Shown one piece after another: positions 473 through 60,892 of a stretch of DNA of 64,000 bases (position 1 is the first letter of the stretch; each line of letters opens with the position of its first letter). Origin of the DNA: a virus (taxonomy: Duplodnaviria; Caudoviricetes); IMG/VR virus record IMGVR_UViG_3300033076_001139, positions 64,001 to 128,000 of that record, one strand, 5' to 3'. A program made the translations under genes and the position numbers. The notes below the pieces were generated by a model. The model was not told where the DNA came from, searched no databases, and saw nothing but the letters and a program-made list of their open reading frames with translations.

Positions 473-706
473 ATGCAGAAGATCGCGAAGCCGGGCGAGG
501 CACCTAACTATCGCCCGGCAGAGAACTCAAACGCCAGTTGCCAGACTTGCTTCTACTTCGGCAAGTACAACAACGGATCTGGGTACTGCAACCAGTACAA
601 GTTCTCCGCGCGTGAGGCCTTTACGTGTGATGGCTTTACTCCTTCGGCGCAAAAATCGGCGTCTGTTGCAGATAGCGGGCCGTTCCTAAAGGGGCGGTAC
701 TCATGA
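473..706 (+). CDS. Small 4-Cys protein, HiPIP-like Fe-S/metal-binding domain
   Basis: NYR...CQTCFYF...GYC...FTCDGF matches HiPIP-type Cys spacing. GAGG RBS upstream. ATGA overlap with the next gene. Confidence 0.55.
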   Translation: MQKIAKPGEAPNYRPAENSNASCQTCFYFGKYNNGSGYCNQYKFSAREAFTCDGFTPSAQKSASVADSGPFLKGRYS

Positions 707-1128
707 GCCCCGAGGTTCTTTCCGCGTTTGCACGCGAGATAGTCAAGGTTGCGGCGTTGTCCGGTTCCAAAGAGGACATCAGCTCGGGCCGAAAGGTCGA
801 TGCCTTCTTCCTTTCTGCGGAACCTAAAAAGAAGTGGGACGAGTTCAAAGAGAACGTTGCACGACGCTCCTTCGTCCAGAAGGTGCTGGCGGACCCCCGC
901 ACAGACCAGAAGCTCCTCGTACACGCGGACTCCATGAACCGCCTTGCCACTGGGCAGCGTCTTGGCATGGTTCCGGGAGCTAACGGCGAGACCTACGAGA
1001 TCAAGCGGCTACGGGGGTCCAGCGAGCTGGGCTGTACCTGCGCGGACTGGCGCTACAAGAAGTCAGTTGCCCCTGCGGGACAGCGCGAGTGCAAGCACAT
1101 CCGCATGTTCCAGGGTGGTAAAAATTGA
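703..1128 (+). CDS. SWIM zinc-finger protein with N-terminal K-x-A leader
   Basis: YEIK...GCTCADW...ECKHI is the SWIM CxC-xn-CxH motif. Confidence 0.8.
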   Translation: MSPEVLSAFAREIVKVAALSGSKEDISSGRKVDAFFLSAEPKKKWDEFKENVARRSFVQKVLADPRTDQKLLVHADSMNRLATGQRLGMVPGANGETYEIKRLRGSSELGCTCADWRYKKSVAPAGQRECKHIRMFQGGKN

Positions 1129-1285
1129 CTCCCTGCTTGGACGGTTCACCGCTTCTCCCAGGGAGGCTCCTACTTCCCTCTCGGTTCGTGGGCCAGCCAT
1201 CCTCCCTCAACACGAGGTGAGTGGTTTTCTGAGCATAGACTTTATAACTGTTTTTCGTTTCTTTTAGTCCCAAGAGGAAGGACAC

Positions 1286-1543
1286 ATGAGCAAGACTGTT
1301 GGCGAGGTTCTACAGGAGGTACGCGAGCTGAAGGAGCGGGCGACGGTGCATCAGGCACTCGCGAGCTACCTGCGGACGTACTACATGGGTCGGGACTCTG
1401 GGAAGTCGCAGAAGCAGCTCAGCTGCGAAGCGGCCCCAGTTGCCGAGCGGGTGATCGAAGAGATCGCCTGTGAACTTGAGGAGACTGCCAAGGAGGCAGT
1501 CTCTATCGCTAACAGCACACTCTCGGAGAAGTATGATGGGTAG
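1286..1543 (+). CDS. Hypothetical helical protein
   Basis: GAGGAAGG RBS upstream; 85-aa ORF overlapping the next start. Confidence 0.7.
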   Translation: MSKTVGEVLQEVRELKERATVHQALASYLRTYYMGRDSGKSQKQLSCEAAPVAERVIEEIACELEETAKEAVSIANSTLSEKYDG

Positions 1544-1967
1544 CCCCACGCGCAGCGCACGCAACCTTGCCGCCTCTGCCACTGAAGTCGCAAATCAGGC
1601 TGTTGAGGTCACCAAGGACAACCAGTTCCTGCTGACGCAAGTACTTGATGAAATGTCCAAGCTGACCGAGGCCATCGACATCATCTGGGCGCAGCAGGAG
1701 GCTATGCGTGGGGCAATGGAGGCGATGGATACCACGCTTGCCGCCCTCAAGCAGACGGTGCTTCGCTCGGGTAACGCTGCCAGCGCGCAGTTCGATGAGG
1801 CGGAACGTTCTTTTGCAGAGAAGAAGGCTAAGCTTCGCGCCGCGCGAGAAGTTGCGCTTCAGCAGGCAGAACTTGCAAATACCCCCGCACCGGTAGAGAA
1901 TAAGCCCTCACCGGTTTCCCCTGGTAGCTCCAGCTACCCATCAGAAGCTTTTGTTTTCGGAGGCTAG
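1536..1967 (+). CDS. Hypothetical coiled-coil protein (start 1533 or 1536)
   Basis: Heptad-rich sequence, Pro/Ser-rich tail ending AFVFGG; start overlaps the upstream stop. Confidence 0.7.
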   Translation: MGSPTRSARNLAASATEVANQAVEVTKDNQFLLTQVLDEMSKLTEAIDIIWAQQEAMRGAMEAMDTTLAALKQTVLRSGNAASAQFDEAERSFAEKKAKLRAAREVALQQAELANTPAPVENKPSPVSPGSSSYPSEAFVFGG

Positions 1968-1968
1968 C

Positions 1969-2517
1969 ATGCCCAACCAAGAAGCCCTCGTAGCCCACGC
2001 CGACCTGGCCCTAGACTTCCTAGGACATATGCGAATGATGCACCTCTGGTTCCACGGGGCGCATCACCTAGTTAGCGGGGTGTCTTTTTCGGGAGATCAC
2101 GTAAACCTGTTCGGAACGATCTACACAGAGATCGAGGAGCAGATCGACGGGGCCATCGAGAAGTTCGTAGGGCTGATTGGCGAGGACATGGGCGACCCGC
2201 TCGCAATCACCTCCAAGGCCCTTGAGGCCATGCAGGGGTACCAGTCTCCGGCGCACCGTAGCGCAACGGCGATTGCCCTGACTGGTCTTCAGATTGAGAA
2301 GGACTTCCTCAACCTGTGCGAAGAGATGTACGCTGTCCTCAAGCAGAACGACGCCATGACGCTGGGGCTGGACGACTTCATTATGACGACGGCCAGCGCA
2401 CACGAGACGTTCGTCTACCTGCTACAGCAGCGTGTTCGCGAGGCGATGCAGCAGCAGGCACAGACGCAGGGGATGGCCCCGCAGCCTGCTGCAATTCCGG
2501 CCATCCCCGGCCACTAG
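1969..2517 (+). CDS. Ferritin/Dps-like four-helix-bundle protein
   Basis: HxxHxxVxG-x-F-xx-H-xLF-xxxY-xxxxxQID-xxxE is the Dps ferroxidase pattern. GGAGG RBS before ATG 1969. Confidence 0.8.
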   Translation: MPNQEALVAHADLALDFLGHMRMMHLWFHGAHHLVSGVSFSGDHVNLFGTIYTEIEEQIDGAIEKFVGLIGEDMGDPLAITSKALEAMQGYQSPAHRSATAIALTGLQIEKDFLNLCEEMYAVLKQNDAMTLGLDDFIMTTASAHETFVYLLQQRVREAMQQQAQTQGMAPQPAAIPAIPGH

Positions 2518-2528
2518 TGGGTTATACT

Positions 2529-2575
2529 GACTACGGCGGGGGACTCCCTCCATGAAAGTCCTGCCGTAGTCTTTT
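2529..2575 (+). terminator. Intrinsic terminator-like hairpin after the Dps-like gene
   Basis: GACTACGGCG..GGACT pairs with AGTCC.TGCCGTAGTC, followed by TTTT. Confidence 0.6.
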
Positions 2576-2681
2576 CCCCCGCCCGCTTGGTCGTTCGCGA
2601 TGCATCATGAGAGACGCAGTAGGCTAGGCCCGCTCTGAGCCAAAATCAGCACCTGTTGGAAGGAGCTGTGCAGAGCTAAAT

Positions 2682-2713
2682 AAATGCCGCCGAGGAGCAC
2701 CTCGGCGGCATTT
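2682..2713. terminator. Bidirectional terminator at the ligase 3' end
   Basis: Perfect 14-bp inverted repeat AAATGCCGCCGAGG-agca-CCTCGGCGGCATTT with A/T tracts on both sides. Confidence 0.85.
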
Positions 2714-2715
2714 CT

Positions 2716-4065
2716 TCATAGGCGCGGGTTCACACACTCCGACACGTGCTTGTCTGTCCGCACGCAGAGGAAGCGTGGGAACCGCAGAGCATTGGTGTCT
2801 CCGCCCTCGGAGATGTACGTTCGGGAGTCGTACTCTACCACGAACACCGCAGGGTAGATGTCCTCGTTACTGAGGGCGCGCAGGTCTGCCTCAGTAAAGC
2901 CGTTACCAACTTCGCTGATGGGCACGAGCGTTCCGTTGTTGTCCAGTTGGTAGAGCTGAACGCTACCGACCAGCTTCTGGTACTTGCCCGTCCCGTAGCT
3001 GCCCTCTCCCTGCCCTGGATGCCAGACGGCGATGAAGTCGTCGCTGAACGTCGGCTTCAGCTTGCCACAAGCCGTACCTGGACGATCCACCTTGCCGCGC
3101 AGGTTGAAGGCCTTGTCGCCGTAAACCCCGTTCGGGTCTACAACGACAAACCCCTCCCACCCGTTCTCGTACGCAGTAGCCGCAACGCAGTTCCAAACAC
3201 GGCCTTTTGTTGCGTTGTACGTGGGAGACTCCTTGGGATCCTCGCACTCAAGGAAGTCGCCCGACGCAAGAACCTCAACCGGCAGGAGAGCGTTGCTGTC
3301 TAGGTTCACCAGCTCAAAGATCAGGTCGTACCGGTCTCTCACTGGACGCGTGCGGCACATGGGCTCTCCGCCAAAGAACGCAATGTCCCAGACATAGAAC
3401 TGGAGAAAGCCCTGCTCTTGCTGAAGGGCCAAGGACTTCTCAGAGAGGGACTTCACGACGCGCGAGACGTACTTGAAGTCATCCTTCTCGGAAGGCGGAA
3501 CCATCTCGCCAAGAAGGATAGTGCGCGGCGGGAGATCCATGTTGGCGATCTCCGCTGCCACTCCAGGGTACCGAACTTCCCAAGGGACGCCCGGTTCCTT
3601 GTCGTGACAACGGAGCATCGTGCGCGAGTAGGCCTGTACCTGCCCCTCGTCGTTCACGACCCAAACCATCATGTCTCCGTCGCGCTTGCGCGCTAGGAAG
3701 GCATCGCCCTTCTCAAGCAGCTTCTCCAGCTTTGCCGACAGGTCGTTGTCCGGTTTGTAGAATCGCAGGGACTCGGGGAGGATGTCCCACGTGAACTCCT
3801 CAGCCCGCTGCGCGGACGGAGGCAGGTAGCCTTCCCGCGTTTTCAGTTCGATCTGCCGTTCGACCATGTCCTGCGCCACCAGCTCGGGAGAGCGGTAGTT
3901 GGACTTGCCCACGTTGACGGCAATTGCCGTGTCCACGACGCGCTGGAACTTACCGCCCAGTTCTCCAAACTCGGTGATTACCTGATCACCGTCTGCGCCA
4001 ATCCGCCAGACGCGCACCTTGCCTGTGCGCGAAATGTTATGCAGTTCCGTCATCGGAGGGTTCAT
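2716..4065 (-). CDS. lig: ATP-dependent DNA ligase with WGR-like N-terminal domain (start 4065 or 4053)
   Basis: Motifs KRDG (I), GEM (III), FYVWD (IIIa), EGFVV (IV), KLKP (V), LRFPRF..RTDK (VI). Confidence 0.93.
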   Translation of the reverse strand: MNPPMTELHNISRTGKVRVWRIGADGDQVITEFGELGGKFQRVVDTAIAVNVGKSNYRSPELVAQDMVERQIELKTREGYLPPSAQRAEEFTWDILPESLRFYKPDNDLSAKLEKLLEKGDAFLARKRDGDMMVWVVNDEGQVQAYSRTMLRCHDKEPGVPWEVRYPGVAAEIANMDLPPRTILLGEMVPPSEKDDFKYVSRVVKSLSEKSLALQQEQGFLQFYVWDIAFFGGEPMCRTRPVRDRYDLIFELVNLDSNALLPVEVLASGDFLECEDPKESPTYNATKGRVWNCVAATAYENGWEGFVVVDPNGVYGDKAFNLRGKVDRPGTACGKLKPTFSDDFIAVWHPGQGEGSYGTGKYQKLVGSVQLYQLDNNGTLVPISEVGNGFTEADLRALSNEDIYPAVFVVEYDSRTYISEGGDTNALRFPRFLCVRTDKHVSECVNPRL

Positions 4066-4276
4066 GCTGATTATCCGTGGTGTTGATGGTGCGCACAAAA
4101 ACAGTCTTCAGAAGGACATTGAGCAGGAGATCGAGGCCTTCGACGCCGCGTTTACGAAGCTTGGAAACGCGCCGTTGGTTCGATCAGAAAAGGCCTTGAT
4201 CCGGACTTTCCTGGTTGCCCGGCTGACAGGGCGCGTATCTTCTCCCCAAGAGGATTCGAAAACATCCGGTCAATGA
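4064..4276 (+). CDS. Small helical hypothetical protein, antisense to both neighbours
   Basis: GGAGG just before ATG 4064. Protein-like amphipathic sequence EIEAFDAAFTKLGNAPLVRSEKALIRTFL. Confidence 0.45.
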   Translation: MLIIRGVDGAHKNSLQKDIEQEIEAFDAAFTKLGNAPLVRSEKALIRTFLVARLTGRVSSPQEDSKTSGQ

Positions 4277-4646
4277 GGCTGGGCGTGTCCGGAGGCATGT
4301 CCCACTTCTCTGGGCTGAGGACGACGATGGGGAGCGGAAGATTAGGGAAGTTTTCTGGATTGTCCTCATAACCCAGCATTTCTTCCTTGAGTCCACGCAG
4401 CGCCTTTCCTTCCTCGTTTACGTGCCACGCTAGGGCAGTGACGATGTAGCCCTCTCGCTTGCTCTTGAAGCGGAAACAAAGGGCACGGATTTCGTCACCG
4501 TCTACTTCAACGTCTGCAAAACAGAAGTAGCCACGGTGGCCCTGCGTCGAGGGTCCGTAGCCGCAACGCCCGCACTGGTAGACACCAGGGGCGATCTGTG
4601 CCGTGTCGTAACGGCAGATAGGGCAGAAGAGAACGAGCTTATCCAT
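4152..4646 (-). CDS. Zinc-ribbon hypothetical protein
   Basis: CPIC...CGRCG at the N-terminus. GGAGG RBS before ATG 4646. Confidence 0.7.
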   Translation of the reverse strand: MDKLVLFCPICRYDTAQIAPGVYQCGRCGYGPSTQGHRGYFCFADVEVDGDEIRALCFRFKSKREGYIVTALAWHVNEEGKALRGLKEEMLGYEDNPENFPNLPLPIVVLSPEKWDMPPDTPSLIDRMFSNPLGEKIRALSAGQPGKSGSRPFLIEPTARFQAS

Positions 4647-4661
4647 CTGAGCCTCCGCACT

Positions 4662-4689
4662 CTTATGGCTAATAAAGAACAAGTCTTTG
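4662..4689 (-). promoter_or_regulatory. Putative sigma28-like promoter CAAA-N15-AGCCATAAG
   Basis: Same architecture as the sites at 5233 and 58667; ends 15 nt before the start codon. Confidence 0.55.
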
Positions 4690-4718
4690 CGCGCAAGGCG
4701 CAAGACAGCGCCCGAGCC

Positions 4719-5210
4719 TTACAGCCCGAGCACCGCCTTGCGCCTATCCGTCCACTGCATGATCCTCCGCAGGACAAGCGCATACTCGCGCTTGTCCTCC
4801 TTGTTCAGGAGGGCCTGGAGAATTCTCTCCTCGCCCTCCGTGAGGATTGCGGGCTGCTCCTTGGGGAGCGGAAATGCCTCCTCGGTCCGAAGGCGGGAGG
4901 CGGGGCCTACGGGGGCCCCAGCCTTCCCACCCATCTGGGCGATCGTTAGTGGCCAGTCAACGGCGTCAAGCACGCCGTTGACAAACTCGTCCTCCTCCTC
5001 TGTGGCGGGAGTTGTGAGGATGCCGATGATTAGCGCCGCGTCGCGGCGTAGTTTCTCGGAAGCCTCCTCCTTGCGGAGGTGCTGCCGGCAGGCCTCCAGG
5101 CCCGGAGTGACGGCCGCCGCTGCGGCGCGAGGGGCGACAACCCCCGACATGAAGGCCGTGGGGATGGCAGCGCACAGGCTGCCAAAGATAGCAAGGCTGA
5201 TCGGGTCCAT
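4719..5210 (-). CDS. Hypothetical protein with N-terminal hydrophobic anchor
   Basis: AAGGAG RBS before ATG 5210; MDPISLAIFGSLCAAIPTAFMSGVV is hydrophobic. Confidence 0.7.
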   Translation of the reverse strand: MDPISLAIFGSLCAAIPTAFMSGVVAPRAAAAAVTPGLEACRQHLRKEEASEKLRRDAALIIGILTTPATEEEDEFVNGVLDAVDWPLTIAQMGGKAGAPVGPASRLRTEEAFPLPKEQPAILTEGEERILQALLNKEDKREYALVLRRIMQWTDRRKAVLGL

Positions 5211-5232
5211 GAGATACTCCTTTCTCATGTAT

Positions 5233-5260
5233 CTTATGACCGATTTTGCCCTTCCTTTTA
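5233..5260 (-). promoter_or_regulatory. Putative sigma28-like promoter TAAA-N15-GGTCATAAG
   Basis: Spacing matches the FliA consensus TAAA-N15-GCCGATAA; intergenic. Confidence 0.6.
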
Positions 5261-5274
5261 GACTCTGCTATGGT
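5246..5274 (+). promoter_or_regulatory. Putative sigma70-like promoter TTGCCC-N17-TATGGT with extended -10 TGn
   Basis: Ends 8 nt before ATG 5283, which has no SD sequence. Confidence 0.5.
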
Positions 5275-5282
5275 GGGTGCGC

Positions 5283-8612: not shown

Positions 8613-8615
8613 TCT

Positions 8616-8816: not shown

Positions 8817-8825
8817 GAGGCGTGT

Positions 8826-13980: not shown

Positions 13981-13982
13981 AA

Positions 13983-15242
13983 ATGGCCGAGTTTCCTCAG
14001 ATCCAGGCACCGTCCTTCAAGCTCTCTGATGAGAGCAAGGAGCGGCTGCGTAAGGTAGACACTGTGCGGCCCTACGCACACCGTGCTGCTATCTTTGGCC
14101 TGCCGGCGATGGCTTCGGCAAACTACATGCTTCCGCAGATGAAGCGCCGTGGGCTAGCTGTGGGGGCTATTGGGGCTGCGGGCGCTGGCCTGGGGCTGAT
14201 GGATCGCAAGATCGAGCAGCTTGCGGAAGAGCACGAGGAGCTGCGCCCTACTCTTAAGAACTACTCAAAAGGTACCCCCTCTTCTGGAATATCTATGTCG
14301 GCTAAAACTGCTTCCGTGTCTGATCGTGTCCGTCGTAATCAGGACGAGCTGGCGGCTGCTTTCCCGATGACAATGGCTCAACGGGTAGAGCTTCAGAAAG
14401 AGGCCCTCTTGCTGGACCCTAAGACAACGGCGAAAGCTACCGGACAGGCCTTGTCCTTTATGCGCGGTGCAAAGCCTACGCTGATTGGCGCAGGCGTGGG
14501 AGCCGTAGGGGGTGCCGCAGCTGATGGCGAGAACCGGGGCCGCGGAGCACTGACTGGCGCGCTCGTCGGCGGTGCTCTTGGCGGGGGAGCAACTGCCCTA
14601 ACGCGCGCGTACACCCCTGAGCTTCGGGCGGGCATGACTGCCGCTAACCGAGCTGCAATTAGGGGCGGTAAGCCTGTAGGCGCAGCCGACTACACCAAGA
14701 CCTTCAAAGAGGGCTTCAAGAACTACAAGCCTCCCGTTGCGCCTGAAGGCACCGCGAGCACAGCAGCGGTACAAAAACAGACAAGACGCAGTAGAAAGGC
14801 GACTTCTCCGGTTCAACAGCCGGTAACCCAGCCCGCAGTGCAGTCGACTCCTACCCAGACAGCGCAAGAACTGGGGGATATGCGGACGCGTGAGAAAACC
14901 CAATCTGCGCCTGCCTCCTCACTGCGGCATCGTCTACACCAAATGACCTCAAAGGAGGCAGGCATCAACACGATGCATGACGCACACCGCGCAATTGGGG
15001 GACGGCCTCCATACGCCCTCCTCACGATGGGCGGGGAAACCTCGAATGATGCGGTCATAAATCAAATGCTGCGCGCCCTTTTCGCGAACACTGACGCGAT
15101 GCGTAAGGCTACCGAGGATCAAGTCCTCGCAGCCTTCCCGCTATCGGCCCCGTATTCGTACGGGCGTCATCGCGCGATTGGCCGCACAGCGGACGACATT
15201 AAAGCAGAGATTGCGCTGGCTTATACACCTACGCAGAGGTAA
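13983..15242 (+). CDS. Glycine-zipper protein with three internal K-x-A motifs, putative internal virion protein
   Basis: GLAVGAIGAAGAGLG and GAGVGAVGGAAA..GALTGALVGGALGGGA; KTA, KEA, KEA. Confidence 0.6.
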   Translation: MAEFPQIQAPSFKLSDESKERLRKVDTVRPYAHRAAIFGLPAMASANYMLPQMKRRGLAVGAIGAAGAGLGLMDRKIEQLAEEHEELRPTLKNYSKGTPSSGISMSAKTASVSDRVRRNQDELAAAFPMTMAQRVELQKEALLLDPKTTAKATGQALSFMRGAKPTLIGAGVGAVGGAAADGENRGRGALTGALVGGALGGGATALTRAYTPELRAGMTAANRAAIRGGKPVGAADYTKTFKEGFKNYKPPVAPEGTASTAAVQKQTRRSRKATSPVQQPVTQPAVQSTPTQTAQELGDMRTREKTQSAPASSLRHRLHQMTSKEAGINTMHDAHRAIGGRPPYALLTMGGETSNDAVINQMLRALFANTDAMRKATEDQVLAAFPLSAPYSYGRHRAIGRTADDIKAEIALAYTPTQR

Positions 15243-15244
15243 GC

Positions 15245-16018
15245 GTGTCACTCCGCGACGCACTCGAGCAGATGCTCGACAAAGCAGCGGCGGCAGGTCC
15301 TGAACGGGCCGGTCGCCGACAGAAGGAACTTGAGCTTTGGAAGACGTGGAAGGACTCCAACCACGATCCAGAGCACCTGGATCCTTTGCTGACTTCGTTG
15401 CAGCCGTTGATGACGCAGCACGTGAATCGGTACGCAGGGAACGTACCCATCTCACGCCCCGCATTAGAGAATGAGGTCACCCGGCTGACCGTCCGTGCGC
15501 TCAAGAGCTACAAGCCCGACCGGGGTGCCCAGCTCAGTACGTTCGTGACAGGCCAGCTCAAGGGCATCAACCGCTTCGTGACGCAGCACCAAAACGTGTC
15601 GCGCATCACGGAGGAACGGTCGCAGAAGATCGGTCGTTACCAGCGCGCGCACACCGCGCTGAACGAGTCCCTTGGTCGCCCGCCCACGGCACAGGAAGTT
15701 GCCGACGAAATGAAGGTCTCCGTGCGTATGGTCAATCGCCTCTCGCAAGAGATGCGGTCTGACCTTCTGGGCTCCGGCTCAGAGCACGACCCATTCTTGG
15801 ACGAAGAGCCCAAATCCCGCGAAGTGCTGCGGCTGATGTACCCGTACGCCTTCTCACCTGATGAGCAGAAGGTGTTTGAATACCTTCTCGGCCTTAACGG
15901 CAAGGAGAAGGAACTGAAGACGGGCAAGATTGCTCGTGCGTTGGGCTGGTCGGACTCCAAGGTCAGCCAGACTCGCGCTGCAATTGCGAACAAGGTTAAA
16001 CCGTACCTCAATGGGTAA
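15245..16018 (+). CDS. RNA polymerase sigma factor, sigma70 family, FliA/WhiG/SigB-like
   Basis: Region 2 ALKSYKPDRGAQLSTF, region 3 LGRPPTAQEVADEM, region 4 FSPDEQKVF..KIARALGWSDSKVSQ. Confidence 0.9.
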   Translation: MSLRDALEQMLDKAAAAGPERAGRRQKELELWKTWKDSNHDPEHLDPLLTSLQPLMTQHVNRYAGNVPISRPALENEVTRLTVRALKSYKPDRGAQLSTFVTGQLKGINRFVTQHQNVSRITEERSQKIGRYQRAHTALNESLGRPPTAQEVADEMKVSVRMVNRLSQEMRSDLLGSGSEHDPFLDEEPKSREVLRLMYPYAFSPDEQKVFEYLLGLNGKEKELKTGKIARALGWSDSKVSQTRAAIANKVKPYLNG

Positions 16019-16235: not shown

Positions 16236-16244
16236 CGAAGAGCG

Positions 16245-45665: not shown

Positions 45666-45668
45666 TAA

Positions 45669-46508
45669 TTACCTCGAAAACGGGTTGCGGGATCCACCAC
45701 CAAGACGCTGAGAGCAGTGCTCGCGGTAACCGCAGCCCTTGCACTCATACTTGCCGGCATCAGCAATTGGCTCAGTGCCCGTCTCAAGTGCCTTCTCAAG
45801 CGGCTCGATCTTGTCGCGACGCCAGTTCTGGTACACCCGCTCGTCGTACACCATCGGGTACTGCTTCATCGAACCGGTTCCCTTGTCCACGTACAGGAAG
45901 CACATGAACGGGACATTCAGGGCTCGGCAGTAAATCGAGGCCTGGAGGATGTGCTCCTCCTTTGGCTTCGAGAGCTTGCTGTACCCATCCGAGCTGATGG
46001 TCTTGATCTCGATGACGTAGGTGTGGTCTACCTGCTCCACGACACCGTCAGCGTGGCCGTTCTCGATGAACGACTCCGGCAGGTCAACGGTTACTTCATC
46101 CGCAAAGTTATTCGGAAGGGCGCGATGAATTGCCTTCTGAATAGTTGCGTGGATTGCATGGCCGATATCGAAGATGAACTGGAGTTCGGGAGAAATCTCC
46201 TCCTCTCCTTCGATCTCAGCAAGCACGTCGTAGTACAGCTTCAGGCGGCAGCGGTGTGCCGACGACGGGTGCACGGTTCCGATGCTACGGAAGTGCGGCT
46301 GAATCTCGCCCTGTCCGTCACAGGCCTTGCACTTGTGCGGACGCGCGTTGGCGACTACGGCCTCAAACACGTCACGGGTCATGCTCCGGCGTCGGCCGTC
46401 TTTCGACAGCTGGCGGTAGACCAAGCCCTTCAGGTCAATTCGGTTGAGCACGGATTCAACGTCAGCGGGCGTTGCGTGCTCTAGGTCAGCAATCGTGTGG
46501 ATGTTCAC
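45669..46508 (-). CDS. PD-(D/E)xK exonuclease, Cas4/AddB-like, with 4-Cys cluster
   Basis: HPS..RC, G.AIH, GHADG, EIKT, Q..IY, C..C.Y...C. Confidence 0.88.
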   Translation of the reverse strand: MNIHTIADLEHATPADVESVLNRIDLKGLVYRQLSKDGRRRSMTRDVFEAVVANARPHKCKACDGQGEIQPHFRSIGTVHPSSAHRCRLKLYYDVLAEIEGEEEISPELQFIFDIGHAIHATIQKAIHRALPNNFADEVTVDLPESFIENGHADGVVEQVDHTYVIEIKTISSDGYSKLSKPKEEHILQASIYCRALNVPFMCFLYVDKGTGSMKQYPMVYDERVYQNWRRDKIEPLEKALETGTEPIADAGKYECKGCGYREHCSQRLGGGSRNPFSR

Positions 46509-46975
46509 GTTTTGTCCTGCTTGTAGGTTTCAAGTAGCTCTTTGAACCAGGCGTCCGGGAGTACCACGTACTGCTCGTATTTCCCGGCACGGTCTTGTGG
46601 CCGGAATTCGATAGTAAATGCGGGGATCTCGCCGTCGTTTGCCTGCGCGATGAGCTTGTGTAGGTCTTCTAGTTTTAGCGAAAAGGACTTCTTCTCTGTG
46701 CTCTTGCACTCCATGCGGAACCCTTCCCCCTTAACATCGCCCTTGTCGACTGGGGTAGAGCCGGAGGCGATAGTGCGGCGGCCTTCATACCGCTTCGCAT
46801 TTATCTTCTCCTGCCTGTCCGAAATCGTACGGGTGGGACGTGTAAGAGGAGGAGGGGCCGCATCCTCAAGTTGAGATGGCCGGAGAACGCTCCCGCAGCC
46901 ACCACAAGAGAATGACGACCCGCTCCAGTGCCGCAGGTCCGTGCTCCCGCAGTTAGGGCAGCACTTCTGCGCCAT
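46505..46975 (-). CDS. Hjc-like PD-(D/E)xK resolvase with N-terminal zinc ribbon
   Basis: CPNC..CGGC; QE...A...G....SG....KGDV....ECKST. Confidence 0.75.
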   Translation of the reverse strand: MAQKCCPNCGSTDLRHWSGSSFSCGGCGSVLRPSQLEDAAPPPLTRPTRTISDRQEKINAKRYEGRRTIASGSTPVDKGDVKGEGFRMECKSTEKKSFSLKLEDLHKLIAQANDGEIPAFTIEFRPQDRAGKYEQYVVLPDAWFKELLETYKQDKT

Positions 46976-48198
46976 TAGTCCATGTCCTCGTCAGTGTAAT
47001 TGCACTTGATGCCCGCCTCGTGCAGCGTGAGGCGTTCAATCTCGGCAAGCACTTCGGGGCCAAGCTCACGAACCTTTTCCGTGAACGCGTCGATGCCGCG
47101 CACAGTGAGGTCCCCGAATTCGTACATCGCACCGTTCTTGCTGACCACGTCGTAGTCGGCAGCAACGCGGATGGACTCCTTCACGCGGTCAAACCCGACG
47201 AGGGAGAAGATGAAGTCATAATTGCCCTTGCCGCCTTCGTGGCCGCCGGCCTTTTGCTTCATGATCTCGTACTCGATGGTCTTTCCGATGCGAACCTGAG
47301 ACTCGCCGATCTTCTTGTTCACATAAGCAAGCCGACGTAGCTGGATGGTGACCCAGCGTGCGTGCTTGAGTGCGTGGCCGCCTGCCTCAATCGTGTCCGG
47401 AGAAAACGGCGTAGCCTTCTTCATGTTGTCTCGGACCTGGTTGATGCCGAGGATGCATGTGAGGTTGGGCATGCCGTTCTTGTCGGGAGCAGTCGCAGCA
47501 TTGATGCGCTTCGCAAACTGGCTGTTCACAATCGACGCGCCGCCTGGGCGGACGTTGTCCTCAAGTGTGTTCTGGTCTTCGAGTTCCGTCAGCATAGAGC
47601 CGAAGGAGTCGATCATCACCACATTGAACTCGCGCGAGGCGACCATCTCCGTAGCGATGGACAACGCACGCTCTGCCGTGTCGGGCGGACAGACCACGAA
47701 CTCCCCAATCTGGTCGGAGAACGCGGCGCGCTCTTCGGCAGAGAAACGGAAAGACTCGTCCTGCCTAGATGCGGCCTCGGCACGCTCGATTGAGCGAATT
47801 TCCTGTGGCGAAAGTGCGATGCGAACACCGCAGTCACGCGCAAAGAGCTTGTCGTACGGCATCTCAAGAGAGACAACGCCAATGCGACAACGATCACCAA
47901 ACAGGATCTGCTGGTTCTTGATGACCTGATTGCAAAGCCAGTTCTTGCCGATGCCTTCCGGAGCAACAAGCATCGTCATGCCGCCGGCGGGAAGCCCACC
48001 GCGCAGATCAATATCCAACTTCAGGATGCCCGTGGGCAGACGACGCATCGCCCACGGCATCGTGTACTCGTCGCCCTTGAAGATGCGGCCCGGATACTTT
48101 GTCTTTAGGGTGTTCATCAGGTTTAGAAAACCTGTGTTGTCCGCGCCGCGAATGGGCTGTTCCGCGCGAGTGGACTCTGCTTTCTTACGAGGGGGCAC
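46975..48198 (-). CDS. recA: RecA/UvsX recombinase
   Basis: TGILKLDIDL.GGLP.G, Walker A APEGIGKN, IDS, INQVR, GGHALKH. GGAGG RBS with GTG start. Confidence 0.93.
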   Translation of the reverse strand: MPPRKKAESTRAEQPIRGADNTGFLNLMNTLKTKYPGRIFKGDEYTMPWAMRRLPTGILKLDIDLRGGLPAGGMTMLVAPEGIGKNWLCNQVIKNQQILFGDRCRIGVVSLEMPYDKLFARDCGVRIALSPQEIRSIERAEAASRQDESFRFSAEERAAFSDQIGEFVVCPPDTAERALSIATEMVASREFNVVMIDSFGSMLTELEDQNTLEDNVRPGGASIVNSQFAKRINAATAPDKNGMPNLTCILGINQVRDNMKKATPFSPDTIEAGGHALKHARWVTIQLRRLAYVNKKIGESQVRIGKTIEYEIMKQKAGGHEGGKGNYDFIFSLVGFDRVKESIRVAADYDVVSKNGAMYEFGDLTVRGIDAFTEKVRELGPEVLAEIERLTLHEAGIKCNYTDEDMD

Positions 48199-48225
48199 GT
48201 TTCCTCCGAATGGGAGGGACGGCTC

Positions 48226-51102: not shown

Positions 51103-51169
51103 GCCTACCCTCCGAGATAAAAAATGCCGGTCTTTCCCGGCTGTCAGCACTAACTGTGCAAGTTGCTAA

Positions 51170-54691: not shown

Positions 54692-54985
54692 TCACAGCTC
54701 CCAGTCGGGTTCGGTTTGCATGGGTTCGGCAGGAATAGGCGAAGACGACAGCCCAACCGCAGAGTTGATCCTGTCTTGAATCGCCGTTGCCAAGCCGTCC
54801 GCCAGACGAAGAAGGTCCTCGTCGGCGACGCTCGTTGTGCCCGCACCGACTGACCCGGAGAACTCCTCGGTGGCGAGGTCAACAGTGTATCCCACGCGAA
54901 CGGCGATGAGACCATTCGCGTTGCGGTGCACCGTAACTTCGTTGAGAACCAAGGTTACAGGCGCGTCTTTCGGAATGGGCTTCAT
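54692..54985 (-). CDS. Hypothetical protein
   Basis: GAGG RBS; coupled within the operon. Confidence 0.7.
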   Translation of the reverse strand: MKPIPKDAPVTLVLNEVTVHRNANGLIAVRVGYTVDLATEEFSGSVGAGTTSVADEDLLRLADGLATAIQDRINSAVGLSSSPIPAEPMQTEPDWEL

Positions 54986-55317
54986 CGACCCCTCACCTGC
55001 TGGTAACGCTCCCCTGCAAGAAGGAACGCCTCGTGCACAAAAGCCGCAGCTAGGTCCGACGCCTCGGCGTAGGCCTGCTCAACGGTGTCCGTGTCCTGCC
55101 GACAGGCGAGAGACACGGAGGCAAACGCCCCAAAGCCACGACCGTAGTCGTTGTCCTTCATCTCCATAGAGATGGTCACTCGGGCAGCGCCCGTATCATC
55201 AAGACCCTTCAGAGAATCCTTCGGCATATGTACGTCCTCCGCGCTTAGGTCACGTTCGGCAATAAGGTCAGGCTGCCCCGGCACGCGCACGTCGTGCCGG
55301 AGCCTCCCCACAATCAC
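54982..55317 (-). CDS. Hypothetical protein
   Basis: 4-bp overlaps at both ends. Confidence 0.7.
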   Translation of the reverse strand: MIVGRLRHDVRVPGQPDLIAERDLSAEDVHMPKDSLKGLDDTGAARVTISMEMKDNDYGRGFGAFASVSLACRQDTDTVEQAYAEASDLAAAFVHEAFLLAGERYQQVRGR

Positions 55318-55751
55318 TGCTTGAACCGAGACGGCATGTAGACGCGGGGAGTGTCCTCCTCAACGCGGACAAACTCGGAGTACTCACTCTGCAAGTCGGA
55401 GGGCAGACGGGCCAGCTGGTCCGTGTTGACCTCGAAATACAGAAGGCCAAAATCCTCAACAAGACGCGTCAACTCCCCGCGAGCGCGGGCCTTCTCGATC
55501 AGGTTTGCTCGATCAACAACCGTCTTCTTGTACGGCTTCACCTGAAACGTGAACCCAGCAGCCTCAACCGTCTTCTTTCCCTGCCGCAGCAGATCCTCAA
55601 CCGTCTTTCGCTCGCGCGCGATCTCCGCGCCAAGAAAGTCGATGCGCTCGAAGTCCTCAGCATGCTGCTCACGGATCTCGTTGAGGATCAGTTCCTTCTC
55701 TTCGGTAAACTCGACCAGCTTCGCGATGGCCTCGGCCATTTCATCGGTCAT
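55314..55751 (-). CDS. Coiled-coil protein, Gam/Gp157-like architecture
   Basis: N-terminal coiled coil followed by short beta strands; ATGA overlap. Confidence 0.55.
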   Translation of the reverse strand: MTDEMAEAIAKLVEFTEEKELILNEIREQHAEDFERIDFLGAEIARERKTVEDLLRQGKKTVEAAGFTFQVKPYKKTVVDRANLIEKARARGELTRLVEDFGLLYFEVNTDQLARLPSDLQSEYSEFVRVEEDTPRVYMPSRFKQ

Positions 55752-56497
55752 TTTTGATACCCCTCTGGGCGGTGTGGAAAAGACTGTCCAAATGCGTCCT
55801 TGTACTCCGCGTCAAGCAGAGTGAGCGCCTGCTTCAAGTCTTGCAACGTCTTGTAGGTGTCTCCCTTTTTCTCGGCGACAAGAGACTGGTCACCCTTCTT
55901 CAGCAGAAAACCGGGAGCAAGGAGGGCCATCATCGGGTACCGCACCTCCGTCCCAGAGATGGGGCTAGCTACGGTGACATCGAAGATGCTACCTCTTTTG
56001 TCCGTAATCTGGACTGTTTTGCCGACCACGGCGGATGCCGCCGTCTTGCCGAGGGCGATGATCAGCAACGGGTCTACAGCGTAGATGATCCGCTGTAGGC
56101 GATCGTTGCAGGCCTCGATCTCGACGTTAGTCGGGGTACGCCCCTCTGGGGTTCGACAACCGACTACGTTCGTCCAGAAGATATGGCGGTCGAGGTACTC
56201 CCTGAGGTCAAGGAAGTACCCCTCGTTATCCTCCGTGTCGTAGGAGCGGAAGCGCAGCATCTCTTCCGTGTCGGGCCACACCATCGCAAGCATGTCCATC
56301 AGGAGACGGCCAGACTTCCCGAGAAACGGGATGCCCTGGTTCTCGTCTTCCTCAGACGGAGCCTCTCCTACTACGAGGATGTCCGCGCTCGCACTTCCGC
56401 TGCCGAACACGACCTGAAGACGCCTCTCGCAGAGTCCACAAGCCGCACAGTCCGCGTATTTCTCAAAGGTATCTTCAAGGGCGGAGATACCGCTCAT
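55748..56497 (-). CDS. Family-4 uracil-DNA glycosylase-like protein lacking the motif-B His
   Basis: CAACGLC, VVFGSG...DILVVGEAP, PFLGKSGRLL, TNVVGCR.P, EIEAC, IIALGKTA. Confidence 0.9.
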   Translation of the reverse strand: MSGISALEDTFEKYADCAACGLCERRLQVVFGSGSASADILVVGEAPSEEDENQGIPFLGKSGRLLMDMLAMVWPDTEEMLRFRSYDTEDNEGYFLDLREYLDRHIFWTNVVGCRTPEGRTPTNVEIEACNDRLQRIIYAVDPLLIIALGKTAASAVVGKTVQITDKRGSIFDVTVASPISGTEVRYPMMALLAPGFLLKKGDQSLVAEKKGDTYKTLQDLKQALTLLDAEYKDAFGQSFPHRPEGYQK

Positions 56498-56856
56498 CGG
56501 TAGTTCACGCCGGGTGCGGGAAGCACGATCCCCGAACGTCCCGTCATCGCGCGGTAAATGTCGATGAAGTCCTTGTGGTCCTCGACAGAGAAATGCGCGC
56601 ACGGGGGAAGCCAGATCGTCATTGGCTTGTTTGCCGGTACTATCGGACTGGGAGCGACCTGCATCACTGGAGCGCGTGGGTCGCCCGCCATCTGGATCCG
56701 TAGCTCAATCGCGTCAAGGACATTGATGCCCCTCTTCATCAACTCCTCGGTGCTGTGGGAATCGGGCCAGAGCCCGAGAAAGCAGCGGCTGTTGTACATG
56801 AAGACCGTCAGGTTCTTCAGGTACGCCCCATCGGATTGCGTCGTTTTTGATTCCAC
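56494..56856 (-). CDS. Hypothetical protein
   Basis: 120-aa ORF inside the operon, ATGA-coupled to the UDG-like gene. Confidence 0.65.
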   Translation of the reverse strand: MESKTTQSDGAYLKNLTVFMYNSRCFLGLWPDSHSTEELMKRGINVLDAIELRIQMAGDPRAPVMQVAPSPIVPANKPMTIWLPPCAHFSVEDHKDFIDIYRAMTGRSGIVLPAPGVNYR

Positions 56857-58217
56857 GTAGAGTTCCTGAACGGGTAGTTCTTAGATTTCAAGTAGTTCAA
56901 GACGCTGTAGGTAAGGCCCTTGCACTCATCGATATTCCTGTCGAGGAAGATGATGACCTCGGGCGTCTTCTTTCCCTGCGCCGCTCGCTGAACGCGGCCG
57001 ATGGCCTGGCGGAGTTGCGGGGCCTCCGCATAACCGTCTGCCGCTAGGGGCGTTAGCATGAACAAGCAGTCAAGGTCTTTACGGTTGTAGTTCTCGGTCG
57101 CGACCCCGAACGTCGCAAAGACGATCTTGCTCTTGTTCAGCTCCTTCAGTCGTTCCTCGCTTGGCGTCTCACCGGTAATGAGGCCGCTGCCGGGAAACAT
57201 CGCGGACAAGGTCTTCACGTGCTCGACGCTATGGCTGAGCGCGTAGATCGTCCGGCCCTCAGCTATGGCTTTGGTCAGCCTCCGGCTTATAGCCGCATTC
57301 CGCTCCGTATTCTGGGCCAACCAGGACTTCAGCATGGCAAGGTTTCGCTGCTTGCTGCGGTCCTGCACCAGCTTCTCGTCAGCGTCCGTCAGCTCCGTAT
57401 CCAGTTCGATGACCTCGATCTCGGGGATCATCTCCTGCGTGTCGTCGCTGTAGACGATGGGGCCGATATGGGAGAGGAACACACCCTCGTTTCGGTCTGT
57501 GCGCTTCGGAGTAGCGGTGAGTCCGTACCGATTTCCGATGCACAAGTCGATGCTGCGGGCGAACCACTCTGCGCTCATGTGGTGGCACTCGTCAAAGATG
57601 ATCGTCCCAAAGCGGTGCGCGAAGTCGATAGGAAGCTTTCCGTCTTCCGCACGAGTCGCGAGAGTCTGGACGGTACAGAGAACTACCTCGCGGTCGTACT
57701 CCATCTTCCCGTCCCCCACGCGCCCTGGCTCCGAGTCCAGATCGAAAAACTGGCTCAGCTCTGCCAACCAGTTGTCGAGGTGAGCCGCCTGTGGGGAAAC
57801 AATGAGCGTCGTCAATCCTTCATGCGCTGCCTTGTAGAGACCCATCACAGTCTTACCGGCGCCGCAGGGTAAATGAAGAACGCTACCCTTGCTGTCCTTG
57901 AATGCGGCCCACGGCTCAAGTTGACGATCCCGAAGGGCAAAACCCGGTTTGGGACGTAAACTAGAACGCGGAAACTGCTTGGGGCGGAGGTCTACGACCT
58001 CGATCCCAAGGTCTTCGTGTATCTGCTGCGGGGTGAGAAACCCGCGCGGCACTTCTAAATGCGTAGGATGGTTTTTGACTAAAACTCTGGGCTCGTTGTC
58101 CTTGCCAAGGCCGAAAGTGAGGGCCCCACGAATGGGGCCCTCTGATACTTTCGACAACGGAAGGAACAAGGAAGCCCCGATGTACGCCTTGTCCGGGTGT
58201 AATCGAGGCAACTTCAT
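56817..58217 (-). CDS. Superfamily 2 helicase, UvsW/XPB-like
   Basis: LPCGAGKT, DECHH, GLTATP, QAIGRVQR. Confidence 0.92.
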   Translation of the reverse strand: MKLPRLHPDKAYIGASLFLPLSKVSEGPIRGALTFGLGKDNEPRVLVKNHPTHLEVPRGFLTPQQIHEDLGIEVVDLRPKQFPRSSLRPKPGFALRDRQLEPWAAFKDSKGSVLHLPCGAGKTVMGLYKAAHEGLTTLIVSPQAAHLDNWLAELSQFFDLDSEPGRVGDGKMEYDREVVLCTVQTLATRAEDGKLPIDFAHRFGTIIFDECHHMSAEWFARSIDLCIGNRYGLTATPKRTDRNEGVFLSHIGPIVYSDDTQEMIPEIEVIELDTELTDADEKLVQDRSKQRNLAMLKSWLAQNTERNAAISRRLTKAIAEGRTIYALSHSVEHVKTLSAMFPGSGLITGETPSEERLKELNKSKIVFATFGVATENYNRKDLDCLFMLTPLAADGYAEAPQLRQAIGRVQRAAQGKKTPEVIIFLDRNIDECKGLTYSVLNYLKSKNYPFRNSTWNQKRRNPMGRT

Positions 58218-58225
58218 CTTCTCAC

Positions 58226-58642
58226 CTACTTGAACGGGTTTGGATACTTGCGACGCGGGATCGACCGGACGCTGTAAACTGCCTCGTGCATTACTGCCTC
58301 AAGCGCGCTGAGGAAGCTGTTGTGCGCCAACGCCCCCATGAACGTGTCCTCTGCCTGCACCGCTGTTCGAAGGTGGTCAGCAACCGGCGCAGGAACAGAT
58401 GTACTCCCTTGCACAGTTGCAGCCTGTGTCGTGGTGGGGCGAATTGCAGTTGACGCAGTACTTGTGTAGGCTGACTGCGACCTACTGATCTTCTGCTCTA
58501 CTTGATACCGACACGTACCGCGGAAGGGACAAGCCCGGCACTCAGCATCCGAATCATCGTACTTCGTAACGTCCGCATAGCAGGGCGGTTTGTTGATTGT
58601 CCCCGTGGCTCCAAAGCTCCTTCCGTAAAGACCCTCTGCCAA
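58226..58642 (-). CDS. 4-Cys hypothetical protein, first gene of the replication operon
   Basis: GGAGG RBS with TTG start; PPCY....YD....ECRACPF...C. Confidence 0.7.
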   Translation of the reverse strand: MAEGLYGRSFGATGTINKPPCYADVTKYDDSDAECRACPFRGTCRYQVEQKISRSQSAYTSTASTAIRPTTTQAATVQGSTSVPAPVADHLRTAVQAEDTFMGALAHNSFLSALEAVMHEAVYSVRSIPRRKYPNPFK

Positions 58643-58666
58643 TAGCTACCTCCGGTGTAGCAACTA

Positions 58667-58694
58667 CTTATGCCCGCGTTGTCGTTATACTTCG
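58667..58694 (-). promoter_or_regulatory. Putative sigma28-like promoter CGAA-N15-GGGCATAAG
   Basis: In the divergent intergenic region heading the 15.5-kb replication operon. Confidence 0.55.
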
Positions 58695-58746
58695 TACCCT
58701 TCTTCTTCGGGGGATAGTATGATAGGCACGCCTAGGAGAATCCGCC

Positions 58747-59355
58747 GTGAACGCATTTGACCTCATCGAAGACCTGAAGCACCGGTGGCATGATCTCGAC
58801 TCATACGACCGCCACGATCTCTCGGTTGCTGCTGCTAAACTGGCGTCTGCGCACGGAGCACAGGTCCCTGACGAAATCTACCGCTACAGCGGTGAGAGCG
58901 TCAGCCAGAATTTCAGCACCTACATGCGTCAGCGGCAAGAGTTTACGGCGAATGCGGATATCCAGGAGGCTTACGGCCGTCTGGCTAAGGTGGCGTCCGC
59001 AATTAACCCCGACGAGCTTGTAAACCTTATTTACAAGCTTGACGACGATGCGGGCCTCATTCACCGTTACGGCAAGAACCTCCCTGACCCGCACCTCTGC
59101 GTGTTTGACCGCACGAAGGAAGCCTCGTGGTCCTGGATCCACGGGGGGCACTACGTCAATGAGGATCAGCTTCGTCGCCTTGCTACGGGGCCGACTCGCG
59201 ATCAAATGGAGAAGCTATTTGACTGTGACTTCGTGACGGAGTTCCGCAAGGATCCGCTTGGCAAGTTCCGGGACCTTGCGCCCGAGGCGCAGATCATCAT
59301 TGCTAATATGGCGTCACAGTCACAGCTCCGTAACGACGGAGGCTTCCGTTCGTGA
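58747..59355 (+). CDS. Putative head morphogenesis protein with three K-x-A-S motifs
   Basis: AGGAG RBS with GTG start; KLAS, KVAS, KEAS; same operon as the portal. Confidence 0.6.
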   Translation: MNAFDLIEDLKHRWHDLDSYDRHDLSVAAAKLASAHGAQVPDEIYRYSGESVSQNFSTYMRQRQEFTANADIQEAYGRLAKVASAINPDELVNLIYKLDDDAGLIHRYGKNLPDPHLCVFDRTKEASWSWIHGGHYVNEDQLRRLATGPTRDQMEKLFDCDFVTEFRKDPLGKFRDLAPEAQIIIANMASQSQLRNDGGFRS

Positions 59356-60146
59356 AGTTATTGACGGACGATACAACCTCTCCCGTCGTTCTGTTTTTCT
59401 ACTGCACAAAGAAATACGGACACGAGTGGATGAAGTGGGCACCGGAGGTCCTCAAGCGCACGCTTGAGCTAGACCACCCGGGCGTCGTGCTATCCAAGAA
59501 AGCCCTCAACAGGGCTCTTGCAGCGGCGGTAGTTGCGTCTCGTGACTCGTTTTTTGAGGACTGGGAGCCTTTTCATTTTCTGACGCAGGCCCTCGTCCTC
59601 GGTACGCCTACCGCCGACACAATGCAGGAGCACTCAGTTGGAGAGATGATGGCGGCGGTAGATGACGCGATCTACATTCGTGATCACCTCGGTAAGCTTG
59701 TTGCGCGCCCGTCCTTCTCGGATACCGTGGCACGCTACGTCGCTGCGCAGGCACTGAATCAGGGAGTCTGGTACCTTCCCGCACCTCTAGATTTTGCAAG
59801 CGACTACGCGGGCATGAAGCGGTATCACTGCCGCGACTGCGGACATGAGGGAGAGATTTTCGCAAACGACGGCCTCTGTGACGTATGCACAGAGCGGTTC
59901 GACACGGATAGCCTGCGTGAGTTCAAACCGAGCACGAGCACCGCAGCACGTGGCTTGGGCAGAAATACACAGATTATCTTTAAGAATCCGCAGGACGGCG
60001 TAAAGGCTCGGTTACGCGCTCTCCAGCAGAATCCTGCATCATTTAATGGCACGCAGGATGATGTGTGTGCTGCAAAGCTGCTAGAGGCTATCGACTACAC
60101 GAACCATCGCCGCGTTCAGCGCGATCTTGAGATGCGAGGGCTGTGA
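59352..60146 (+). CDS. Putative head-associated protein with zinc ribbon
   Basis: CRDCG...CDVC; coupled within the portal operon. Confidence 0.6.
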   Translation: MKLLTDDTTSPVVLFFYCTKKYGHEWMKWAPEVLKRTLELDHPGVVLSKKALNRALAAAVVASRDSFFEDWEPFHFLTQALVLGTPTADTMQEHSVGEMMAAVDDAIYIRDHLGKLVARPSFSDTVARYVAAQALNQGVWYLPAPLDFASDYAGMKRYHCRDCGHEGEIFANDGLCDVCTERFDTDSLREFKPSTSTAARGLGRNTQIIFKNPQDGVKARLRALQQNPASFNGTQDDVCAAKLLEAIDYTNHRRVQRDLEMRGL

Positions 60147-60892
60147 TGGACGCACGTATACTGCGGGCTTTTGGCTCAGAACTAGAAAAAATAGCGGTCA
60201 TGTCCGAGGACAAGCCGGGATTCTGGTCTGCGGCTAAGGCTCCGTTTACTGAGACGGCCAAGCTTGTCCGACCAAGTACTGCCAAAGACGCGTGGAAAGA
60301 CCTGTGGCATGGCTCGTCTAACGCACACCCCTTAAACCGAGAGTTCCTGCACGAAGAACTACACGGCACCGTAAACCCAAAAACTGGACGTAGAGAAGGC
60401 GGGGCAATTGCTGGACTGAAAGGCAAGGGTACGTACGTCGATGACATTTCGCATGCTAAAGGCGTGCGCGCGGACCTACGCCGCGGTGGCTGGCTTGCCA
60501 ACATGGCTAAGTATGAGGGCCCCAGCACCTGGCGAAAAGGAATAAACGCAGTGACTCGCCACCTTCCCGGGCAGCGCACCCTTCTGCTGGGCGGTACTGC
60601 CCTGGGGCTTCATTCTGATTTACAGAAAAAAGACCCCACTACCGGCCGCGAAAGAGGGGCGGCTGAGCGCGTGCTTGGGGCAACGGGCGGAGTAGCGGGC
60701 AGCCTAGGTGCAAGCGCACCCGGTGCTGTTCGCGCTATGTCTCGCGGAGGTATGAAAGGAATGGTGGGCGGCATACTTGGCTCTACCGTCCTTGGTATCG
60801 GCGGAAGCATGGGCGGCGGTTATCTTGGTCGTAAGATCGACGAGGCGCGGGGTTTTAAGCCTAGCGCCCCTCCTAACCAGGTGCCCGGATGA
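60146..60892 (+). CDS. Glycine-zipper protein with N-terminal K-x-A leader
   Basis: MDARILRAFGSELEKIA; LGATGGVAGSLGA and MVGGILGSTVLGIGGSMGGGYLG. Confidence 0.7.
   Translation: MDARILRAFGSELEKIAVMSEDKPGFWSAAKAPFTETAKLVRPSTAKDAWKDLWHGSSNAHPLNREFLHEELHGTVNPKTGRREGGAIAGLKGKGTYVDDISHAKGVRADLRRGGWLANMAKYEGPSTWRKGINAVTRHLPGQRTLLLGGTALGLHSDLQKKDPTTGRERGAAERVLGATGGVAGSLGASAPGAVRAMSRGGMKGMVGGILGSTVLGIGGSMGGGYLGRKIDEARGFKPSAPPNQVPG

Follow-up and report, generated by a model that had tools for sequence, protein, structure and literature searches.

We analysed a 64,000-nucleotide window (bases 64001–128000) of a 151,105-bp IMG/VR virus record, which is put at 81% completeness and belongs to an uncultured phage of 150–190 kb; in this window two proteins with unrelated bodies begin with a similar N-terminal peptide that we call the tag. 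Near the left end of the window, the gene at 703..1128 (+) encodes a 141-residue protein with a C-terminal C-x-C...C-x-H pattern, SWIM-like by eye; near the right end, the gene at 60146..60892 (+) encodes a 248-residue basic protein with a Gly-zipper-like C-terminal region, and its stop codon overlaps the start of the portal gene. Pfam and PHROGs returned nothing for either protein. Translation of bases 703–753 (+) gives MSPEVLSAFAREIVKVA, a weak variant of the tag that begins four residues past the ATG and scores 10.8 bits against the tag profile; translation of bases 60146–60196 (+) gives MDARILRAFGSELEKIA, which scores 19.6 bits. An earlier interpretation made from the letters of this DNA (hereafter the sequence-only reading) had counted seven identities between the two leaders (M1, L6, A8, F9, E12, K15 and A17) and three conservative pairs, and the translations confirm both counts. 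It had also placed the end of the similarity immediately after A17; homologues do diverge into a linker at that point, although the two window proteins retain a weak likeness as far as residue 20 (AALS / AVMS).

This is the sole pair with seven identities among 1596 pairs of N-terminal 17-mers from the open reading frames (ORFs) of the window and, taken alone, it is suggestive but not compelling. Homologues add to it: as the sequence-only reading expected of a genuine leader, A8, F9, E12, K15 and A17 are at least 90% kept among homologues of the 60146 protein (15 of 16). After A17 these homologues pass into a linker with insertions and deletions (one of them of 22 residues), and then into a conserved body. 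An AlphaFold model of the 60146 tag has a helix at residues 3–17 followed by a coil at 18–25, at low confidence. The 703 protein has a SWIM-like body with a homologue in the relative G031, where it forms the C-terminal part of a protein (G031_30728-32095) that bears a strong tag. The consensus that emerges is M-x5-7-[A/G]-F-x-D-E-L-x-K-I-A, mostly 15–18 residues from Met to Ala, and describes an acidic, amphipathic N-terminal helix of 15–18 residues with a hydrophobic face of F, L and I.

A six-frame translation of the entire record contains seven matches to the pattern [AG]F..E[LIVMF].K[LIVMAT]A, as against 0.025 expected from triplet shuffles, and all seven lie 1–8 residues past a start codon. 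Those outside the window are in three tandem genes (genome positions 4362, 4571 and 5013), in a minus-strand gene (46147), and in a gene for a 55-residue Pro/Ala-rich protein (141405), 1.6 kb upstream of the terminase gene. Position in the genome agrees with a role in the head, one tagged gene abutting the portal gene and another, small and Pro-rich, being situated in the head or packaging block. Scanned against Pfam and PHROGs, the other tagged proteins of this genome matched only two unnamed PHROGs. We also observed two neighbouring minus-strand genes (46475–46720 and 46895–47260), 17 kb ahead of the start of the window, whose products share their first 32 residues and then diverge; the shared M..EFAK[IT]ASVDDVYDIYELALLDKEA[AS] holds two cut-site-like motifs, and we take this N-terminus to be a second, predicted tag type in the same genome.

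Searching the DNA and proteins of the portal region and both tagged proteins by BLAST against cultured phages gave no match. The 717-residue portal protein (60889..63042, +) shares 30–33% identity with the annotated portal of Arash, a Salmonella phage of 180.8 kb, and with its counterparts in the Vibrio phages D69, D148 and D181. Beyond these, we scanned IMG/VR with a back-translated DNA pattern for A-F-x-x-E-L-E-K-I-A, and found more than 118 stretches with it among the matches listed. They lie 1–13 residues past a start codon, save for about 25 internal ones (e.g., L004, L006, L009 and L012) in proteins that we take, by recognition of their sequence (RLQRAFxSELEKIAVVHLF), to be T4-like portal proteins; these share a conserved internal RLQRAF[VML]SELEKIAVVHLF that fits the DNA pattern, and are probably unrelated to the tag. 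A looser DNA pattern, applied to 32 large tag-bearing records (100–208 kb), gave 143 matches (up to 14 per genome, clustered and strand-coherent) as compared to one for a reversed control. Codons vary freely between AT-rich and GC-rich relatives, which argues that selection acts on the peptide. The portal family of the window is present in 31 of these 32 records, and a tagged gene sits directly 5′ of the portal gene in a further seven genomes (G030, G005, G032, G016, G010, G012 and G025).

The tag profile, which the sequence-only reading had proposed as a means of finding more such proteins, does find them: there are approximately 95 copies in seven genomes (this one and six whole genomes of relatives, each with 7–16), nearly all of them 1–13 residues past a start. 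There are none in Arash, none above control level in D69, and no tag-bearing cultured phage in the phage collections searched. Arash and D69 fall among tag-bearing lineages in the portal tree which, being unrooted, is compatible with either a single loss or a gain of the tag. Cellular genomes totalling 596 Gb yielded 17 matches, mostly coincidences in cellular proteins as judged from flanking sequence, and gave no host clue; from that flanking sequence only, some are presumably PhoU-like and transketolase-like N-termini. No description of the tag was found in the literature, where full-text matches to its sequence were author and plant names. Numbered back from the terminal Ala, the logo reads P10 A/G, P9 F, P7 D, P6 E, P5 L, P4 E, P3 K, P2 I and P1 A, and conservation stops at P1; P9, P6 and P3 are fixed by the pattern used for alignment, so that only the other positions are free evidence.

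The bodies behind the tag are strikingly diverse: 77 of them, from the seven genomes, fall into 69 BLAST clusters, 62 of which are singletons. They include small basic proteins, Pro-rich peptides, Gly-zipper proteins and SNF2 helicases, with a median length of 152 residues and a median isoelectric point (pI) of 10.3 after the tag; 89% of them have a pI above 9, as compared to 45% of background ORFs (P = 1.6e-15). Neighbouring genes may even have the same tag (MNFQEAFFDELEKIA; MFQKIY.DAFKDELEKIALST) in front of unrelated bodies (L015 653–935, L055 65–347, L100 6431 and 7785), as if bodies were swapped behind a constant tag, much as at the variable internal-protein loci of T-even phages. In short, the tag is N-terminal, conserved at the protein level, and borne by unrelated bodies.

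Just one tagged body has a homologue in Arash: the SNF2 helicases (L018, L026, L064, L111 and G031) are orthologous to Arash Gp217, which is plentiful in the virion, with 38 unique peptides and 1148 spectra (PMC10585845). In tag-bearing genomes the helicase has an N-terminal extension with a full or a decayed tag; the Arash copy begins at the helicase core. The phage sigma factor offers a parallel. In the window (15245..16018, +) it has an N-terminal extension of about 20 residues that holds LDKAAA (15275–15292), and orthologues in four of seven tag-bearing genomes have such an extension with LDKAAA, LGKIAA, LGKLAA or LTKEAG; the sigma factors of Arash and D69 are without it. Arash sigma (Gp10) is itself a virion protein (PMC10585845). 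The Arash supplement provides annotation and no peptide list, so its coverage figures are uninformative as to processing.

Another key observation concerns the final residues of the tag, L-x-K-I-A, which fit a motif, Φ-x-K-x-A (Φ, hydrophobic) followed by S, A or G, that crowds the head-assembly proteins of this clade. We examined head modules in nine genomes, using [LIMV]-x-K-x-A-[ASG] as the test motif. Nearly all proteins encoded between the protease and capsid genes have Φ-x-K-x-A near the N-terminus or repeated. The sequence-only reading had suggested an enrichment of K-x-A in head proteins, and it is large: 8–15 times expectation. Observed and expected counts in the head module are 19 and 1.28 in Arash (P = 3e-16), 23 and 1.5 in D69 (P = 1e-19), 17 and 1.36 in G030, 13 and 1.19 in G021, 11 and 0.96 in G006, and 6 and 0.73 in this genome; the corresponding values for the rest of each genome are 15 and 13.05, 13 and 11.55, 26 and 12.7, 11 and 11.71, 39 and 12.04, and 18 and 10.36. 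Thus, outside the head module, counts are at expectation in tagless Arash and D69 and raised in G006, G030 and this genome (not in G021), as the tags themselves would cause. For the pooled head modules, Φ-x-K-x-A was observed 150 times against 26 expected (5.7-fold), and every control was flat at approximately 1-fold: six control motifs, among them those with Arg in place of Lys or Gly in place of Ala, the motif reversed and two shifted versions of it, and likewise Φ-x-E and [ASG]-x-E. The last two represent the cleavage rules of T4 (277 observed versus 243 expected) and phiKZ, respectively, neither of which is enriched in these head modules.

At the head-module sites, P4 is Glu in one third, and P1′ is Ser in 33%, Ala in 18%, Glu in 11% and Gly in 9%. 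Scaffold-like acidic proteins hold up to nine motif sites (the scaffold-like protein of this genome is encoded at 150073–150906), and the capsid protein has one, at about residue 25–30, in a position kept between Arash (LVKEA) and the G031 group (KDKIA). Several variants named by the sequence-only reading can now be sorted: those in the sigma N-terminus (LDKAAA) and in the ORF at 58747 (AAKLAS and LAKVAS) fit the enriched motif, and those in the ORFs at 13983, 48405 and 473 are indistinguishable from chance, given 18 occurrences versus 10.4 expected outside the head module. We noted in addition that the large subunits of the virion RNA polymerase begin with K-x-A-S sequences, MPKSAS in Arash (130093, Gp206) and MPKKAS in D69 (143288). 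The idea that the tag is a copy of a capsid-protein N-terminus (‘EAFLEKIA’ in G021; ‘LFFEKVA’ in G031) was set aside as a lead only, the profile giving these sequences no score.

The protease that might act on such sites, a gene that the sequence-only reading had called for, lies outside the window: a homologue of Arash Gp222, it is encoded at genome positions 148149–150008 and is 619 residues long. Its G031 copy matches PHROG 18299 (‘head maturation protease’) with an E-value of 1.3e-7, and the family numbers 4188 representatives at 50% identity. A profile search against Protein Data Bank sequences found nothing, and Foldseek alone gave E-values of 0.04 or weaker. On structural realignment, a model of the N-terminal 330 residues (predicted local distance difference test score, pLDDT, of 82.6) is best matched by T4 gp21 (5jbl_C; Z 8.9, root-mean-square deviation 2.9 Å over 133 residues) and next by approximately 35 herpesvirus proteases (Z 4.9–7.1), with unrelated entries at 4.0 or below. 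To judge from this model, the protease has the fold of T4 gp21 and herpesvirus assemblin. Among 46 sequences His138 and Ser194 are invariant and H220 is nearly so; we assign H138 and S194 a putative catalytic role. In relatives the protease gene lies within the head module, 4–5 kb upstream of the capsid gene; by synteny with Arash, the capsid-protein region is absent from our contig. The protease carries its own Φ-x-K-x-A site, at about residue 25–37, in 141 of 150 diverse representatives, in a segment for which the model’s pLDDT falls below 50. The sequence-only reading had invoked T4 for comparison, and aptly so: the layout of the motif in capsid protein, protease and scaffold is the layout of gp21 sites.

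Bearing in mind that the end of the tag helix is the very motif that crowds the capsid-assembly proteins, the tag is most likely a load-then-cut signal. We hypothesize, with somewhat better than even confidence, that it is a capsid-targeting propeptide of the type found in T4, docked and then trimmed. The helix would dock a newly made protein into the core of the assembling prohead, and Φ-x-K-x-A followed by S, A or G would be the cut site of this clade’s serine protease with the gp21/assemblin fold. After assembly, the protease would remove the tag, break down the multi-site scaffold and process the capsid protein, so that the head would retain, next to the DNA, a diverse set of proteins, most of them small and basic; in some relatives the set would include the SNF2 helicase and probably the sigma factor. 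These contents would then be ejected into the host together with the virion RNA polymerase. Every computational test proposed by the sequence-only reading favours its idea of an analogous but different system; loading into the head and cleavage at K-x-A are what we still infer, as we do the docking step and the ejection.

We advance more tentatively, with distinctly less than even confidence, a wider joint claim: that an uncultured, Arash-related clade of 130–210-kb phages with a virion RNA polymerase uses a portable 17-residue address to send dozens of unrelated, fast-evolving proteins (small basic proteins, channel-like Gly-zipper proteins, helicases and sigma factors) into the head and thence into the host, and that a cleavage rule of Φ-x-K-x-A/S,A spans a protease family of more than 4000 members at 50% identity.

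Several points weigh against the proposal of a load-then-cut signal. The tag-bearing phages are known from their sequences, and it is from these that packaging and cleavage are predicted. Arash and D69, which have the same portal and protease families, package helicase, sigma factor and RNA polymerase without a tag, so the tag is not the sole route into such heads. The tag profile finds no match in capsid protein, protease or scaffold; what they share with the tag amounts to only 5–6 residues. At P1′, tagged proteins are less constrained (A 27%, S 11%, E 11%, F 8%, V 7%) than the head-module sites, and the repeated motif could be for docking rather than a scissile bond. Some tagged proteins, from their Gly-zipper or transmembrane-like runs, could be membrane proteins. 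Gene calls in the GC-rich relatives were crude, and the exact residue classes of the test motif were fixed after head-module N-termini had been viewed; the K-x-A idea itself came from the sequence-only reading and other DNA, and the size of the effect is far beyond what the choice of classes could produce.

Most of the remaining probability is held by three rival explanations. The first, which we consider unlikely but the strongest of them, is that the tag is an uncleaved helix that docks onto some other hub (the products of the two genes that precede the tagged gene beside the portal, the virion RNA polymerase complex, or a host factor) and resembles the head-module motif partly by coincidence. 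The two genes in question are gene A (58747..59355, +), which encodes a 202-residue protein with the motifs AAKLAS (58831–58848) and LAKVAS (58981–58998), and gene B (59352..60146, +), which encodes a conserved 264-residue protein with a Zn-ribbon (CxxC...CxxC) and adjoins the portal gene in relatives. Pfam and PHROGs hold nothing for either. Both (58747–60146) are kept beside the portal in six of six tag-bearing genomes compared, and BLAST detects neither in tagless Arash or D69, a distribution that suits a hub; so do the loose P1′ and the N-terminal half of the tag, [A/G]-F-x-D-E, which has no counterpart in the head-module motif. However, nothing that we found connects either gene with the tag, and an uncleaved helix leaves unexplained why conservation stops so sharply at the tag’s Ala and why the tag ends in the 8–15-fold enriched motif, with the same preferences at P5, P4, P3 and P1.

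The second rival, which we judge less probable still, is that the tag is an acidic pro-peptide, removable by the protease, that silences basic DNA-binding or membrane-active bodies until late in infection and has no role in addressing them to the head. The preponderance of basic bodies behind an acidic tag (D, E and E versus one K) is in keeping with such masking, as are the Gly-zipper or hydrophobic runs of several bodies. Yet a 17-residue helix with a net charge of about −2 is too small for bodies of 600–750 residues such as the helicases; its near-invariant hydrophobic face (F, L and I) suggests a fixed binding partner; and the prohead protease works inside the prohead, so its substrates must reach the prohead regardless.

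It is very unlikely, to our mind, that the tag is a membrane-targeting or export signal for envelope-acting proteins (e.g., lysis or superinfection-exclusion factors): the predicted amphipathic helix and the many bodies with Gly-zipper or transmembrane-like segments lend themselves to that idea, but the tag is acidic, unlike the basic or hydrophobic signal and membrane-anchor peptides that are known, it is also found on cytoplasmic enzymes (the SNF2 helicases) and on a Zn-finger protein, and its end matches the head-module motif. Finally, chance or a conserved nucleotide element (a translation start region or a recombination site) is hardly credible as the main explanation, and we rejected it: identical tags on neighbouring genes with different bodies do suggest recombination at the tag, but the shuffles and reversed-pattern controls described above, and synonymous codons that vary while the peptide is kept, speak otherwise.

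Turning to known systems, the closest to our proposal is the capsid-targeting sequence (CTS) of T4, an N-terminal propeptide of 10–20 residues: it attaches to the core of the prohead, gp21 cleaves it off (PMC7411985), and in the otherwise very diverse internal proteins it alone is conserved (PMC3012670). Both the CTS (of IPI, IPII, IPIII and Alt) and the tag are short N-terminal elements on diverse, fast-changing and mostly small basic proteins, and both end in a motif that is also found in the scaffold, the capsid protein and a protease of gp21 fold, although cleavage is predicted in our case. The tag has no sequence likeness to MKTYQEFIAE; its predicted rule is Φ-x-K-x-A/S,A,G instead of L/I-x-E; and many more proteins carry it (7–16 per genome, and at least 69 families in seven genomes), helicases included.

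In SPN3US and other phiKZ-like giant phages, head and ejection proteins bear N-terminal propeptides whose presumed role is to direct them to the prohead, and which the prohead protease (gp245/gp175, A/S/G-x-E) removes (PMC7411985). Those phages and the clade described here are alike in being large and in having a virion RNA polymerase and, as proposed for ours, many ejection proteins. Their lineages of portal, capsid and polymerase differ. Moreover, the SPN3US/phiKZ propeptides exceed 100 residues and share no common short tag, and the A-x-E rule is not enriched in our head modules. In phage P1, the N-terminal 30 residues of DarB suffice for the capsid packaging of a reporter, or of a large protein of the helicase/methylase type (PMC9024508). 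That signal is known on one protein, without a common motif family and with no reported link to a protease; the tagged SNF2 helicases weakly match a DarB-like PHROG. As to the herpesviruses, whose assemblin shares the fold modelled for our protease, their cleavage sites take the form (V/L/I)-x-A followed by S; the clade described here is particular in having Lys at P3 and a hydrophobic P5. The predicted Ala-Ser/Ala scissile pair also resembles the Asn-Ala-Ser-Ser core of a human cytomegalovirus protease substrate (PMC13486704), which is a resemblance and not a test of specificity.

The principle is thus already known from T4; the novelty lies in the tag sequence, in the predicted rule and in the scale. 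If our proposal is true, the tag would provide a second natural protein-packaging tag beside the T4 CTS and the P1 DarB signal, and it would permit the injected cargo of a large uncultured clade to be listed from sequence, encompassing at least 69 unrelated families in seven genomes. T4 internal proteins of this sort are anti-restriction weapons, and the tag would list candidate effectors of anti-defence and host takeover. It would also predict a cleavage rule for a protease family of 4188 representatives, and aid annotation of mature capsid proteins.

Some further features of these genomes deserve mention. Synteny with Arash also locates the terminase gene at genome positions 143178–144938 and a fused RNA polymerase gene at 128051–134251. 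Directly 5′ of the sigma gene, a 419-residue protein (13983–15242) has a weak match to Gly-zipper_YMGG (Pfam E-value 9e-5, below the cut-off). In two relatives (G031 149610–150062 and G030 115741–116502) the head module encodes a small protein that starts with MPEWIHQRADHIRAKNPxMSESQSFAIATQQ; that of G031 contains an internal tag-like motif, MVMWAGFSDELQKIAF, which may be a separate start. Lastly, portal homologues in G002, G007 and G009 lie in frames of 1121–1634 residues, with the portal match in two to three pieces, and many protease homologues (P0141, P0142, P0161 and others) are 900–1500 residues long, with the match split near profile position 169–183; these split matches look like intein insertions in head genes.

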